Shown in pieces: positions 11,644 through 14,950 of a DNA stretch of 64,000 bases. The position numbers and the translations under genes are program-made. The stretch is from an uncultured Candidatus Saccharibacteria bacterium (GTDB lineage Bacteria; Patescibacteriota; Minisyncoccia; Phycocordibacterales; SBAW01). The stretch covers positions 399,797 through 463,796 of the forward strand of contig CAZMIU010000001.1 of the NCBI GenBank assembly GCA_964566795.1, read 5' to 3'. The notes below the pieces were generated by a model. The model was not told the DNA's origin. It saw only the letters and a program-made list of their open reading frames with translations, and did not search any database. Positions within the stretch are counted from its first letter, which is position 1, and every line of letters starts with the position of its first letter.

Positions 11644-14600
11644 TTACTTGCTCCAGCGGTACAAGAGGATTGAGAAGTCGACAGAGTCTATCTTGTTGTC
11701 GCGGTTAAGGTCGACTGCCGCATTCTTAAACGGCCCAGGCGTCTTCCAGAACGCCAAGAGGATAGAAAAGTCGGTGCCGTTTACCTTTGCATCTCCGTTA
11801 ATATCTGCAGGCGCGCTCGCAGCGGGCGTACTCTCGCTCCTTGTATTTGAGCTGCCGCCACCCCCGCCGCCACCCCCGCCTCCGCCGCTTCCCCCGCCGC
11901 CAGAAGAGGCGGGTGCCGTAGCGACAAACTGGCGCGACGCTACAGAGGAGTCTGCCCCAAAGTACGCAACAGTTTTAAAGTAGTACGTTCCTGCAAGCGG
12001 CACGGTTGCACTGAGTGTAGTGTCAAAGTCGTCTCCCGAGTCTATGAGCTTTGCCGCAGAGGCATAGTAGGTATCATCGCCGCCGCCGCAGGCGTTCGAT
12101 ACGCTTGAGACAACACACCACTCGTACTGGTACTCGTAATCTACTGAGCCTTCGTTGGTGATGCGGATATTGGCCGATATGCTGGGCGTTTCGGTGGAGC
12201 CCATACTCTGTATGAGCACCTGGGCCGGCGCGCTTACCACGCTCCAGTAGTCGTTGGTTTGTATGGTCTTGCCGCTCTCAACCTGGGTTGACACCACCGA
12301 CTCCCAGGTGCCCTCTGCGGCCGAGCCCGAGGTGGTGTAGGTGTACTCGTATACGCCCGTACTCAGGAGCGTCATCGCAACCCCGGAGACAACCGTGTTG
12401 CGGTCGGCGTCGTATACGGTTATGGCCGGGGCCGTGTTGGGTGCCGTTAATGTACTGCCGTAGAGGGTGGTAACACGTGCACGGTAGACATCGCCCGCGA
12501 GAGCGCTGTCAAAGTCCGACATCTGCACCAGCCAGCCGTTGCTTGCCGCCGATATGTTGCCTATTGCACTTCCAATCGACGACGATGCGGTAGTCACGAC
12601 ACTGTTTGTATTAGCATTGACGACTGCAGCAACTGAGGAGGACGCGGTCTGTACGTCAGACAGTGTTGCAAGCGAGCCGGAGGTAAGCGCCGCGGTCGTG
12701 AGCGAGCGGGCTGCGTAGGTCCAAATGTCAGCGGCGGTAAGCGAGCCTGCACCGGAGATGCCCGATATGGCCGCATCGAGGTTGTCGACGATGAGCTTGC
12801 CTACTGTGCCTGGGCTCGTGAGCGTTGTGGTGGCAACGTTCCAGACTGCGGCCGGGAGCGAGGCCACAGAGCCGACCAGGGATGCGAGCGAGGAACCCAG
12901 GGACGAGGAGGCGGCCAAAACAACGCTGTTGGTGTTGGCATTGACGACTGCGGCTAGGGATGAAGAGGCGGTAGATACAGTTGAGGAGAGTGATGCGGTC
13001 TGGGTGTTGGTGTTTGCATTGACGACCGCGGCTACAGACGAGGATGCGGTCTGTACGTCAGACTGGGTTGCAAGTGAGCCTGTGTCGAGCCCGGCGCCCG
13101 TGAGCGTGCGTGTGCCAGAGCTCCAGACATCGGCCGCAAGGGTGCCAAACGAGCTGAGCGTCCTGCCGCCTGCGGCCCATACCGCGGCTGGGATGCCGGA
13201 AACTGAGGAGGCCACAGAGGAGATAACTGAGCCCAAAGACGATGACGCGGCCAGCACAATACTGTTGGTGTTCGCGTTTACAACAGAGGCAACCGACGAC
13301 GAGGCGGTGTTTATCGCAGCGACTGTGTTGGTATTAACCGTGGCTGCAATTGAAGAGGATGCAGTTGAGACTGCGCTGTTGGTGTTGGCGTTGACTACTG
13401 CAGCTACAGATGACGAGGCCGTCCCAACATCAGACTGTGTCGCCAGTGAGCCCGACGAGAGGCCGGCGCCCGTGAGCGTGCGCGTGCCCGAGGCCCATAC
13501 GTCCGCCGCAAGAGTGCTGAACGACGTGAGCGTCCTGCCGCTGTAGTCCCATACCGCAGCCGGTATACCTGTCACCGCCGAAGCCACCGACGATATCGCC
13601 GCACCCAGAGACGAGGAAGCTACCAGGACAATACTGTTGGTGTTTGAGTTTACAGTCGCCGCAATTGAGGAAGACGCGGTTGAGACCGTGCTGTTGGTAT
13701 TTGCGTTTACCACTGCCGCAACCGAGGATGAGGCTGTTGAGACCGTGTTGTTGGTGTTGGCATTGACCACTGCCGCGACAGATGACGATGCAGTCCCGAT
13801 GTCAGACTGGGTTGCAAGTGAGCCTGTGTCGAGCCCGGCGCCCGTGAGCGTGCGCGTGCCAGAGCTCCAGACATCGGCCGCAAGCGTGCCAAACGAGCTG
13901 AGCGTCCTGCCGCCTGCGGCCCATACCGCGGCTGGGATGCCGGAAACTGAGGAGGCCACAGAGGAGATAACTGAGCCCAAAGACGATGACGCGGCCAGCA
14001 CAATACTGTTGGTGTTGGCATTGACGACCGCGGCGATTGAGGAGGATGCTGTGGCAAGGTCGGCGGCCGAGAGCGTGTCGAGTGCATCAACCGCAGAGCC
14101 AATCGACGACGATGCAGTCGCCACCACACTCGAGGTGTTGGCGTTGACGACCGCGGCTACAGACGAGGACGCGGTCTGTACGTCAGAGAGGGTTGCAAGT
14201 GAGCCCGTGTCGAGCCCGGCGCCCGTGAGCGTGCGTGTAGCGGCGCTCCACACGTCCGCGGCCAAAGAGCCGAACGTAGACAAGGAGCGGGTGCCATAGC
14301 TCCAGATGCTGGCCGGGATAGAAGCAAGTGTAGAGAGCACAGAGGTGAGCGATGTCCCAAGCGAAGATGACGCGGCCAAAACAACGCTGTTGGTATTTTC
14401 ATTAACTATATCGGCCACTTCCTGCGCCGTAGGGATGGTAGCGGAGGAGGTTGCCACAATAAACGTCTTGTCCTGCTTAACCAGCGAGCCGTCGCCCGCA
14501 TAGCCGCAGCTCATCTGCGCAGGAAATGTGCCATGCGTGCTCGTGGAGTAGCTATAGCTATAAAAGCTGTCAGCCCCGGCAGACATACTGGCGGCATTAA

Positions 14601-14817
14601 CTTCTACCGAGCCTGAGGGCCCCCATATCGACACGTAGCAGTTGGTCGTTGTTGCGGTATAGTCGTCGTCGTACACAAAATCGCCCAGCACTACTGTTTG
14701 GCCGGGAGCATACGTGGTATAGGCAGCCGACGCAGATGAGGCAAAAAAGAGAGGTAGCGCGAGCAGAACCCAAACCGAGAGAAGAAATCTCCTATTTCTT
14801 CTTGGCGGAATTATCAT
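11644..14817 (-). CDS. Giant Ser/Ala/Thr-rich repeat surface protein with a poly-Gly linker and a C-terminal type-I dockerin; the N-terminal signal carries a twin-arginine-like motif
   Basis: Start MIIPPRRNRRFLLSVWVLLALPLFFASSASA|AY, where RRFLL is Tat-like and ASA is the cleavage site. There are about 5 repeats of roughly 110 aa (..VNANTNS.VLAASSSLGS..IPAAVW..GRTLSSFGTLAADVWSSGTRTLTGAGLDTGSLATQSDV.TASSSVAAV). A linker SSGGGGSGGGGGGGGGGGSS is followed by a dockerin duplicated Ca-binding loop DINGDAKVNGTDFSILL..DLNRDNKIDSVDFSILL. The ORF's upstream 34 aa (to 14919) were rejected because they overlap tatA. Confidence 0.7.
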   Translation of the reverse strand: MIIPPRRNRRFLLSVWVLLALPLFFASSASAAYTTYAPGQTVVLGDFVYDDDYTATTTNCYVSIWGPSGSVEVNAASMSAGADSFYSYSYSTSTHGTFPAQMSCGYAGDGSLVKQDKTFIVATSSATIPTAQEVADIVNENTNSVVLAASSSLGTSLTSVLSTLASIPASIWSYGTRSLSTFGSLAADVWSAATRTLTGAGLDTGSLATLSDVQTASSSVAAVVNANTSSVVATASSSIGSAVDALDTLSAADLATASSSIAAVVNANTNSIVLAASSSLGSVISSVASSVSGIPAAVWAAGGRTLSSFGTLAADVWSSGTRTLTGAGLDTGSLATQSDIGTASSSVAAVVNANTNNTVSTASSSVAAVVNANTNSTVSTASSSIAATVNSNTNSIVLVASSSLGAAISSVASAVTGIPAAVWDYSGRTLTSFSTLAADVWASGTRTLTGAGLSSGSLATQSDVGTASSSVAAVVNANTNSAVSTASSSIAATVNTNTVAAINTASSSVASVVNANTNSIVLAASSSLGSVISSVASSVSGIPAAVWAAGGRTLSSFGTLAADVWSSGTRTLTGAGLDTGSLATQSDVQTASSSVAAVVNANTNTQTASLSSTVSTASSSLAAVVNANTNSVVLAASSSLGSSLASLVGSVASLPAAVWNVATTTLTSPGTVGKLIVDNLDAAISGISGAGSLTAADIWTYAARSLTTAALTSGSLATLSDVQTASSSVAAVVNANTNSVVTTASSSIGSAIGNISAASNGWLVQMSDFDSALAGDVYRARVTTLYGSTLTAPNTAPAITVYDADRNTVVSGVAMTLLSTGVYEYTYTTSGSAAEGTWESVVSTQVESGKTIQTNDYWSVVSAPAQVLIQSMGSTETPSISANIRITNEGSVDYEYQYEWCVVSSVSNACGGGDDTYYASAAKLIDSGDDFDTTLSATVPLAGTYYFKTVAYFGADSSVASRQFVATAPASSGGGGSGGGGGGGGGGGSSNTRSESTPAASAPADINGDAKVNGTDFSILLAFWKTPGPFKNAAVDLNRDNKIDSVDFSILLYRWSK
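12600..14300. repeat. Long near-identical tandem DNA repeats inside the giant-protein gene (period about 370/740 nt)
   Basis: More than 200 nt is nearly identical between 13059-13275 and 13800-14016. Diverged copies lie near 12640 and 13420. Confidence 0.7.
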
Positions 14818-14950
14818 CGGTAAATCCCTTGCGCAGCGTGCGCACTGCTTCAACGATATTCTGCGCAAGCGCCGGGATCTTCCGGGAGCCGAACAAGAGC
14901 ACCAGGATAACTGCGACAATGAGCAGTTCCTTAAATCCTATATCAAACAT
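14792..14950 (-). CDS. tatA: Twin-arginine translocase subunit TatA/E (52 aa)
   Basis: Not in the ORF track because it is under 60 aa. Minus-strand translation: MFDIGFKELLIVAVILVLLFGSRKIPALAQNIVEAVRTLRKGFTDDNSAKKK, with the TM segment, the hinge FGxxK(I)P and the amphipathic KGF motif. It starts 10 nt after the tatC stop and overlaps the start of the giant gene by 26 nt. Confidence 0.8.
   Translation of the reverse strand: MFDIGFKELLIVAVILVLLFGSRKIPALAQNIVEAVRTLRKGFTDDNSAKKK

Follow-up and report, generated by a model that had tools for sequence, protein, structure and literature searches.

Tat operons that encode their own cargo are already known; for instance, PhoD of Bacillus subtilis is co-expressed with TatAdCd, a minimal TatAC system with a single cargo (PMC6708511). 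Lysine in place of the first arginine (KR instead of RR) is tolerated in experiments (PMC1182353, PMC6708511) and is rare among proven bacterial Tat cargos (PMC6708511), with TtrB of the Salmonella tetrathionate reductase as a native KR Tat signal (PMC1182353, PMC6708511). Tat hitchhiker complexes have also been described, e.g., E. coli hydrogenase-2 HybO/HybC (Rodrigue et al. 1999, as cited in PMC6708511).

Paceibacteria are abundant, almost uncultured episymbionts, and next to nothing is known about how their surface is built and how they attach to hosts. Within the window (the whole stretch of 64,000 nt that was analyzed), the region 9301–19575 (−) represents one copy of a cluster of nine genes that is conserved among Paceibacteria (Patescibacteria/CPR), in the order p193, p788, p213, p61, tatC, tatA, the gene of a giant dockerin protein (hereafter giant), coh288 and coh517. 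A first-pass annotation of this DNA had singled out the overlap between tatA and the giant gene as a probable translational coupling of a Tat subunit to its likely substrate; the cluster itself turned out to be the more interesting result.

Results and discussion

Gene order and distribution of the cluster

Relatives of the giant protein (C-terminal module) are encoded by 202 Patescibacteria species genomes, and the full gene order was seen in most of the 80 loci examined. A description of the nine-gene cluster was not found in the searchable literature. The physical linkage between the giant and the tat genes, reported for the window in the first-pass annotation, is real and widely conserved: tatC and/or tatA lie ≤ 10 kb from the giant gene in 56 of 65 species loci. 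Of the 65, 43 are colinear, 5 have tatC adjoining the giant gene, and 8 have a divergent tat block. Wherever a locus includes downstream sequence, it shows the giant–coh288–coh517 triad, and the chromosomal position of the block is stable.

It is possible, though somewhat unlikely, that the two halves of the cluster (p193-p788-p213-p61-tatCA and giant-coh288-coh517) are functionally unrelated, their adjacency and overlap reflecting only genome compaction and inherited order. The inversion of the blocks relative to each other in 8 loci would fit such a history, as would the relocation of tatA beyond the cohesin genes, one sub-clade that kept p193-p788 and the giant gene without tatCA nearby, and a giant protein that needs no Tat signal. 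However, the blocks remain adjacent in nearly all 65 species loci despite rearrangement, tatC–giant contiguity is retained where tatA has moved (L029, L032, L084), and a fused TatC–giant ORF exists (P0035, two assemblies). Given this fusion and the tat adjacency in most species, Tat and the giant protein may be functionally connected in a way that uses no RR motif.

The tat genes and the start of the giant gene

The tatC gene (14963–15712, −) was recognized with the Pfam TatC model (E 4e-37, 128 bits, cut-off 25.1), and alignment of its product to E. coli TatC (9dzz) indicates that ELRKRL and HER, the signal-binding motifs of TatC, are conserved. Its neighbor tatA (14792–14950, −) encodes 52 aa with an LLFGSRKIP hinge and a C-terminal KKK (Pfam TatA_B_E, E 2e-8, 33.8 bits, cut-off 21). 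Scores for TatC and TatA with the stricter TIGR00945 and TIGR01411 models fell just under the cut-offs (TIGR01411 on TatA, E 1e-11), and no tatB was found in the cluster.

The giant gene (11644–14817, −; 1057 aa) starts at ATG 14817, i.e., 26 nt within the 3′ end of tatA (overlap at 14792–14817, −, from reading the sequence), exactly as first annotated. This ATG was also rightly called the sole plausible start, as no in-frame ATG, GTG, or TTG lies between it and the hydrophobic core. That the start is misannotated (a non-canonical codon or the upstream TTG 14919), leaving no meaningful overlap, deserves hardly any credence: the ORF is indeed open upstream as far as TTG 14919, but what is added there is out-of-frame tatA, which lacks signal character. 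Moreover, at least 7 further species of the sub-clade have the ATG in the same register, preceded at 7–8 nt by an AAGGGA-like Shine-Dalgarno sequence.

The same 26-nt overlap is found in six Logan contigs from this and a closely related population, by independent gene calls on L002, L003, L006, L007, and L008 and by our own reading on L001, where the caller took a later start. It is restricted to one sub-clade and is not a family trait, since homologues elsewhere mostly start 22–669 nt past tatA or lie divergent. From these comparisons, the overlap is a sub-clade-specific form of gene packing, from which translational coupling may result.

Sec or Tat signal on the giant protein

We consider it very unlikely that, in this species, the giant protein is a genuine Tat substrate whose translation is coupled to that of tatA, an arrangement that would yield translocase and cargo jointly. 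Such a reading draws on the start inside tatA, on the tat genes that adjoin the giant gene in most species (tatC being fused to it once), and on the NRRFLL stretch, which fits RR-x-hydrophobic-hydrophobic and, as R9-R10-F-L-L, the default TatP expression RR.[FGAVML][LITMVF] (PMC1182353). By itself, this expression gives 4–7% false positives on Sec signals, and thirteen B. subtilis proteins that fit it are Sec-dependent (PMC1182353). The fit to the Tat consensus noted in the first pass stands, but the motif is not conserved: it occurs in only 1 of 102 giant-family N-termini, that of the window protein itself, while RR at any position occurs in 4 of the 102, and the strict motif [RK][RK]xF[LM][RK] in none of the 66 giants from 80 species loci. 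Even the closest relative, 85% identical (P0002/L008), is without it, reading RRNKSFLL, with NKSFLL where the window giant has NRRFLL.

The arginines are accounted for by the overlap. The M-I-I-P-P-R-R-N of the giant protein is the other-frame reading of the tatA end ..D-D-N-S-A-K-K-K-stop, where the first RR (RRN, A-AGA-AGA-AAT) comes off AAG AAG AAA TAx (AAG AAG AAA TAG in the window), and the second RR differs by 2 nt from the 85%-identical relative; tatA orthologues carry the KKK tail also in clades without the overlap. Judged by their codons, the arginines of the giant n-region are largely out-of-frame tatA KKK-stop and no targeting motif.

The composition and charge of the N-terminus also argue against Tat export. 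The remaining giant-family signals are Lys-rich, Phe/Leu-rich, and Sec-like, and the h-region of the window protein is rich in Leu, Phe, Val, and Trp with zero Gly; no charged residue stands between R10 and the cleavage site (ASA before AY), hence there is no basic c-region that would provide Sec avoidance. Hydrophobicity separates the two families more clearly than the two window proteins: maximum 12-residue Kyte-Doolittle scores average 2.77 in the giant family vs. 2.14 in p193, but the giant protein of the window (2.53) is only slightly above its p193 (2.39). In addition, a 1026-aa fiber of repeats that bears a dockerin is not the kind of folded protein that Tat typically carries, and a far better Tat signal is found on p193 in the same cluster. 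The proposal of a likely Tat substrate could not be upheld; if tatA looks translationally coupled to a giant Tat cargo, this is very probably because two reading frames happen to overlap. Most likely, the giant protein is a surface fiber exported by Sec in the ordinary way, which docks on two neighboring cohesin anchors.

Architecture of the giant protein and its cohesin-type anchors

The giant protein consists of a signal peptide (aa 1–31; MIIPPRRNRRFLLSVWVLLALPLFFASSASA, followed by AY), a GDFVYDDD domain (aa ~32–150), Ser/Ala/Thr/Asn repeats (aa ~150–745), an MG2-like Ig domain together with a Cys-containing beta domain (aa ~760–965), a Gly linker, and a dockerin (aa 1004–1051). The repeat region (12583–14370, −) comprises ~4.5 units according to TRF (periods 372 and 57) and dissection at the protein level, each 124-aa unit (372-nt period) holding 19-aa sub-repeats (TASSSVAAVVNANTNSxVS) and two VWxxGxRTLT motifs. 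The repeats noticed in the first pass therefore exist, with a unit of 124 aa instead of the roughly 110 aa given there, and they do lie outside any named family, as no match was obtained in Pfam, NCBIfam, PHROG, or PDB sequences. The C-terminal end had likewise been read correctly as a Gly run followed by a dockerin: it is of type I (11665–11808, −; Pfam Dockerin_1, E 1.8e-8, 34.9 bits against a cut-off of 22.9), and the duplicated Ca-binding loop-helix is visible as two Ca-loop repeats, DINGDAKVNGTD and DLNRDNKIDSVD. Dockerins are Ca-dependent modules. Searches against Pfam, NCBIfam, and PDB sequences returned no catalytic domain, glycoside hydrolase, or CBM in the giant protein.

Directly downstream, and always adjoining the giant gene, coh288 (10773–11639, −) encodes a Sec signal, a cohesin-like module, an Ig-like domain, and a C-terminal membrane anchor. 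A profile built from 38 orthologues matched the Ruminococcus flavefaciens scaffoldin cohesin structures 5aoz and 5m2o (E 2e-4 and 8.5e-4); matches to cohesin PDB chains ranged from E 2e-4 to 1e-2, over ~60 residues only. The product of coh517 (9301–10779, −) has a Sec signal, a putative cohesin module, a linker, a Big_13-like Ig domain, a TM helix, and a charged cytoplasmic tail. Pfam Cohesin (PF00963) was matched by 8 of its 31 orthologues (best E 1.1e-7; the window copy had no match at E ≤ 0.01) and Big_13 by 17 of the 31. Each anchor carries one cohesin-like module, and the invariant adjacency of the genes suggests a putative binding of the giant's dockerin to the cohesin modules of coh288 and coh517. 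A cellulosome was considered and rejected, given the single cohesin-like module per anchor and a dockerin protein with no carbohydrate-active enzyme domain.

The Tat-signal protein p193 and its signal-less neighbors

The first gene of the cluster, p193 (18994–19575, −; gene callers begin at 19518, giving 174 aa), encodes a small protein with a predicted Tat signal (DQHKRLFLKSLAVIAVGAVAASALPKRASA, followed by LV) and a ~125-aa jelly-roll mature domain. The signal combines a [KR]RxFLK motif (HKRLFLK in the window) with a Gly/Ala-rich h-region (17% Gly, 20% Ala) and a basic c-region followed by AxA, K/R preceding A-x-A in nearly all homologues. The strict motif was present in 104 of 120 database homologues (78 KR vs. 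26 RR, with the second Arg invariant), the remainder being mostly near variants and two N-terminally truncated sequences; 18–95 residues lie ahead of it in the homologues inspected. Across the 80 species loci, 41 of 42 p193 proteins carried the motif vs. none of the giants, of 161 cohesin proteins, or of 1939 other ORFs. The comparison shows a conserved predicted Tat signal of the [KR]RxFLK type, and p193, not the giant protein, is most likely the Tat substrate of the cluster, from which we infer its export by TatAC.

None of the three proteins encoded between p193 and tatC has a signal peptide. The very highly conserved, all-beta p788 (p788/p803; 16550–18961, −, the conserved N-terminus MAKR.. 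favoring the start at 18961) contains a six-bladed NHL/YWTD-type beta-propeller and further beta domains. The acidic p213 (15906–16547, −; syntenic orthologues in 45 loci) has a conserved ~100-aa N-terminal domain, a Ser/Thr/Pro/Glu-rich tail, and a basic C-terminus, and matched no family in Pfam, NCBIfam, or PHROG. The small, acidic p61 (15717–15902, −; MALxDxNFxEGEGQDF...GGNIFIxxE; syntenic orthologues in 48 loci) had no family match in Pfam or PHROG.

It seems extremely improbable that the p193-p788 block, perhaps with the giant gene, is a phage tail or receptor-binding module, whether domesticated or resident. Foldseek linked p788 to uncharacterized Caudovirales tail proteins with E-values down to 4e-12, but at TM-scores of only ~0.2, and p193 matched CIS_spike_tip weakly (E 0.005), jelly-rolls and propellers being generic folds. 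Moreover, none of the seven proteins tested had a PHROG match, no phage hallmark genes lie nearby, and the stable chromosomal position and the 202 species genomes with giant relatives also speak against a phage module.

Proposed mechanism and significance

We regard it as likely that the conserved nine-gene cluster encodes a Sec-exported dockerin fiber on cohesin anchors together with a TatAC pair that serves p193. The giant protein would leave the cell via Sec and be cleaved after ASA, its mature form being an elongated Ser/Ala/Thr-rich repeat fiber. Its type I dockerin would bind the cohesin modules of coh288 and coh517, the membrane-anchored products of the next two genes downstream. This non-covalent tether would hold the fiber on the cell surface, where it would probably serve as an adhesin or a coat. 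The minimal TatAC encoded upstream of the giant gene would export the jelly-roll protein p193, with which, to speculate from gene order, the signal-less propeller protein p788 may travel as a hitchhiker.

In a broader and rather doubtful version, all nine genes would build one undescribed, Paceibacteria-specific envelope apparatus, in which a dedicated minimal TatAC exports p193 with its KR signal, the extremely conserved 800-aa p788 hitchhikes, and assembly factors or chaperones are supplied by p213 and p61. Once exported, the complex would join the cohesin-anchored fiber in a host-attachment organelle. If this were true, KR and not RR would be the normal Tat motif of the lineage.

In the cluster, a private Tat system is combined with a family of Tat signals that are mainly of the KR type, with a propeller protein that is very strongly conserved and has no signal peptide, and with a presumed cohesin-dockerin tether of a non-cellulosomal kind. 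Its genes are concrete, testable candidates for the surface and host-attachment machinery of Paceibacteria. The p193 family also offers a natural test bed for the recognition of the KR motif by TatC. As a caution for annotation, an RR in the n-region of a signal can be the Lys codons of a neighboring gene read out of frame.

Comparison with known systems

Like phoD-tatAd-tatCd of B. subtilis, the cluster groups a TatA/TatC pair with a Tat-signal protein (here p193) and holds no tatB. Unlike the phosphodiesterase PhoD, the cargo candidate p193 is an uncharacterized ~125-aa jelly-roll protein whose motif is mostly KR, and three signal-less proteins and a cohesin-dockerin module are added to the locus. 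The natural replacement of the first twin Arg by Lys is shared with TtrB; in p193, however, KR is the family majority, and no redox cofactor domain is evident. The placement of a small Tat-signal subunit (p193) beside a large, conserved, signal-less partner (p788) resembles HybO/HybC, whereas p193 and p788 share neither homology nor cofactor motifs with it and their co-export is speculation from gene order.

As in non-cellulosomal cohesin-dockerin pairs and anchoring scaffoldins, a C-terminal type I dockerin on a secreted protein is accompanied by cohesin-like modules on neighboring cell-anchored proteins. The locus differs from cellulosomes in that no glycoside hydrolase or CBM was detected on the giant protein and the organism is a CPR bacterium, and from multi-cohesin scaffoldins or SLH/sortase anchors in that coh288 and coh517 each bear one cohesin-like module and sit in the membrane by a C-terminal TM helix. 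Long same-strand gene overlaps that couple translation are known from compact bacterial operons. The tatA/giant overlap resembles them in that the start codon and Shine-Dalgarno sequence of the giant gene are embedded in the 3′ end of tatA, but at 26 nt it exceeds the common overlaps of 1 or 4 nt and forces the giant n-region to read the Lys codons of tatA as Arg.

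Start and architecture of the giant gene

The cluster comprises nine genes on the reverse strand (9301–19575), among them tatC (14963–15712, −) and a 52-aa tatA (14792–14950, −), which are separated by 12 nt and each match their Pfam family above the curated cut-off and their TIGRFAM model just below it. The giant dockerin repeat protein is encoded within a long ORF (11644–14919, −), of which ATG 14817 is the sole sensible start: upstream of it the frame is an out-of-register reading of tatA, while no in-frame ATG, GTG or TTG is found downstream of it ahead of the hydrophobic core. 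The gene therefore begins 26 nt inside tatA, as the first-pass annotation had proposed, and the same ATG was picked by gene calls on independent metagenome contigs from the window's population and a closely related one. A start downstream of tatA, with the AGGAGA right after the tatA stop codon serving as Shine-Dalgarno sequence, was also considered and ruled out, as no in-frame start codon follows AGGAGA.

The 1057-aa product has the N-terminus MIIPPRRNRRFLLSVWVLLALPLFFASSASA|AY and ends, as had been noted before, in a Gly run followed by a dockerin module (Pfam Dockerin_1, aa 1004–1051). Its repeats are real, but the unit measures 124 aa (372 nt, approximately 4.5 units) and not the 110 aa or so first estimated; within each unit there are sub-repeats of 19 aa along with two VWxxGxRTLT motifs. 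The earlier impression that they belong to no named family was borne out by the lack of matches in Pfam, NCBIfam, PHROGs and PDB sequences, the latter searched by a repeat-unit profile, and a single repeat or the N-terminal domain used as query against Pfam likewise retrieved nothing. Two antisense ORFs in the repeat region (12725–13546, +, 273 aa; 13637–14299, +, 220 aa) are most likely not genes but a side effect of the repeats and of Ser/Ala/Thr codon composition. The N-terminal domain (CxxxxxCxIGEFLYDDxY...) is also found at the head of proteins of about 900–1000 aa from Levybacteria and other CPR (P0100–P0120), which have bacterial SH3 domains in place of the repeats and dockerin, and it is therefore a mobile module.

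Conservation of the overlap and gene order

Scanning one genome per species with a profile for the giant protein's conserved C-terminal module gave 202 genomes with relatives; 80 loci were retrieved for comparison. An overlap of 17–32 nt between tatA and the giant start was confined to the sub-clade of the window (L008, L013, L016, L017, L020, L031, L038, L057, L061), and outside of it the two genes were 22 to 669 nt apart or the giant gene was divergently transcribed. Comparison of the cluster proteins with the ORFs of these loci recovered the conserved order p193, p788, p213, p61, tatC, tatA, giant, coh288, coh517. Among the 65 species loci containing the giant 5' end, tatC, tatA and giant were colinear in 43, tatC stood immediately ahead of giant with tatA displaced in five, the p193-to-tatA block was inverted in eight, and the remaining nine, five of them truncated, had no tat gene within the locus.

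In one lineage, represented by two independent JGI assemblies (L009:6001–8694 and L010:3476–6169), tatC and giant form a single 897-aa ORF (P0035) with tatA about 5.4 kb upstream; a Lys-rich, Sec-like signal (MKKILAAVF...) lies at the junction and is potentially used as a seventh TM segment. In L029, L032 and L084 tatA is located downstream of the cohesin genes and not upstream of giant. Another sub-clade (L022, L023, L025, L028, L036, L076) has p193, with KRLFLK retained, and p788 divergent from giant; its retrieved sequences contain no p213, p61, tatC or tatA, so tatCA are either located elsewhere in those genomes or absent.

Just past the cluster, beyond a phosphoribosyltransferase gene (8633–9304, +), lies a type IV pilus assembly set (2945–8629, −) with PilM (7520–8629, −), a PilN-like protein (6875–7465, −), PilO (6323–6871, −), and PilB-type (4033–5904, −) and PilT-type (2945–4006, −) ATPases. 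This adjacency is absent from locus L011 and so may be specific to the window's genome. A promoter and terminator scan of 8500–21500 was uninformative on operon limits, the predicted sites being no commoner than in shuffled sequence. Elsewhere in the window, ARAGORN placed a tRNA-Ile (anticodon TAT; 27294–27366, +) over the start of the ORF at 27281–28402, so the listed start of this ORF is probably wrong.

Signal peptide of the giant protein

The first-pass annotation had regarded the giant protein as a likely Tat substrate, coupled to the Tat subunit its gene overlaps. Its twin-arginine motif does fit the default expression of TatP. Taken alone, this expression is positive on 4–7% of Sec signals, and among the proteins that fit it are thirteen Sec-dependent ones from B. 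subtilis (PMC1182353). A database search yielded 159 relatives, every named one from Patescibacteria (Paceibacterota, Nomura-, Yonath-, Taylor- and Doudnabacteria), and across the 102 usable N-termini of the family RR occurred anywhere in only four and RR-x-hydrophobic-hydrophobic in one, that of the window protein itself. In the other N-termini the n-region is short and Lys-rich and the h-region rich in Phe and Leu, as typical for Sec signals. The closest relative, with 85% identity and identical gene order, reads MIIPPRRNKSFLL.

The arginines can be traced to the overlap. The giant ATG sits within the GAT-GAT (Asp-Asp) codons of tatA, and R6-R7-N8 (A-AGA-AGA-AAT) is read one base out of frame relative to the AAG-AAG-AAA-TAG (Lys-Lys-Lys-stop) of tatA; species with AAA codons in tatA have K/N at this place. 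A second RR pair is specific to the window and differs from the relative by two nucleotides (AGG AGA vs. AAG AGT), one of which changes the tatA stop from TAA to TAG. As the KKK tail of TatA is kept also in clades without any overlap, it is the older feature and the RR of the giant protein a by-product. The candidate fails as a Tat substrate on motif conservation and on its c-region. Two observations had been named at the outset as speaking against the Tat proposal, a Sec-type signal and non-overlapping starts in homologues: the composition of the family N-termini points to the former, the restriction of the overlap to one sub-clade establishes the latter, and the proposal is therefore not upheld.

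p193 as the probable Tat cargo

Judged by its sequence, the first gene of the cluster, p193 (18994–19575), carries a textbook Tat signal (DQHKRLFLKSLAVIAVGAVAASALPKRASA|LV in the window). The strict motif [RK][RK]xF[LM][RK] was present in 104 of 120 database homologues (P0121–P0240), the others being mostly near variants and two of them N-terminally truncated; the family shares a Gly/Ala-rich h-region and a K/R pair ahead of the AxA site. When an uncharged stretch after the strict motif was also required, the 80 loci gave matches in 41/42 p193 orthologues, and the 66 giants, 161 cohesin proteins and 1939 other ORFs all lacked this combination; in the 64-kb window even a loose Tat pattern fitted p193 and giant only. 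p193 has all Tat-substrate features tested but strict RR: three quarters of the 104 strict matches have KR (78, vs. 26 with RR). Alignment with E. coli TatC showed intact ELRKRL and HER motifs, which contain E15 and E103, the glutamates involved in signal binding. The conserved signal and the intact TatC motifs together argue for p193 as the Tat cargo of the cluster, exported by TatAC. The sole native KR Tat cargo known to a 2019 review is TtrB (PMC6708511), against which p193 would represent a whole family of KR signals. Searched against PDB sequences, p193 gave nothing beyond noise at E 0.3.

The remaining cluster proteins

Both membrane anchors downstream of giant, coh288 and coh517, have a Sec signal and a cohesin-like module at the N-terminus, Ig-like domains, and a membrane anchor at the C-terminus, and they follow giant in every locus with downstream sequence. 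Pfam Cohesin was matched by 8/31 coh517 orthologues (best E 1e−7), and a coh288 profile matched Ruminococcus cohesin structures (E 2e−4). The two genes are fused to one ORF in L051 (10910–13279) and L053 (7495–9876).

p788 (16550–18961) probably starts at 18961, giving 803 aa, and has neither a signal peptide nor a Pfam domain. Its homologues number at least 1833, the best 120 of them approximately 50–89% identical (most 60–89%), a conservation far above that of the neighboring genes. The N-terminal half contains two copies of a GTVxVSGTAVTGSGTxW...IGFGSTDP...WYxI motif, and the structure model (pLDDT 83.5) has a six-bladed NHL/YWTD-type propeller with further beta domains. Foldseek matches in a viral fold search were phage tail proteins at low TM only (~0.2), and PDB sequences gave nothing. 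p213 and p61 are acidic, lack a signal and matched no known family; a PHROGs search of seven cluster proteins returned zero matches.

Proposed function and comparison with known systems

We infer that the giant protein would be exported via Sec and that its dockerin would bind the neighboring cohesin anchors, displaying a long Ser/Ala/Thr-rich fiber on the cell. More speculatively, p788 could be co-exported with p193, and all nine products could form one surface apparatus. A Shine-Dalgarno-like AAGGGA lies 7 nt before the giant ATG, within the Arg-Lys-Gly-Phe codons of tatA, and the overlap may provide translational coupling; if so, this would be coupling within an operon and not of a translocase to its cargo.

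Literature on dockerin, cohesin or Tat in CPR offered general statements only, and no paper on this cluster was found; one study notes the occurrence of TatA and TatC in Paceibacteria (PMC9166423), and an essential dockerin protein was noted in a Saccharibacterium (PMC10633639). The locus reveals a widespread cluster for which we found no description and which merits follow-up. The closest known counterpart of its Tat part is TatAdCd of B. subtilis, whose only known cargo, PhoD, is co-expressed with it (PMC6708511), and that of the giant fiber is the non-cellulosomal cohesin-dockerin pairs.
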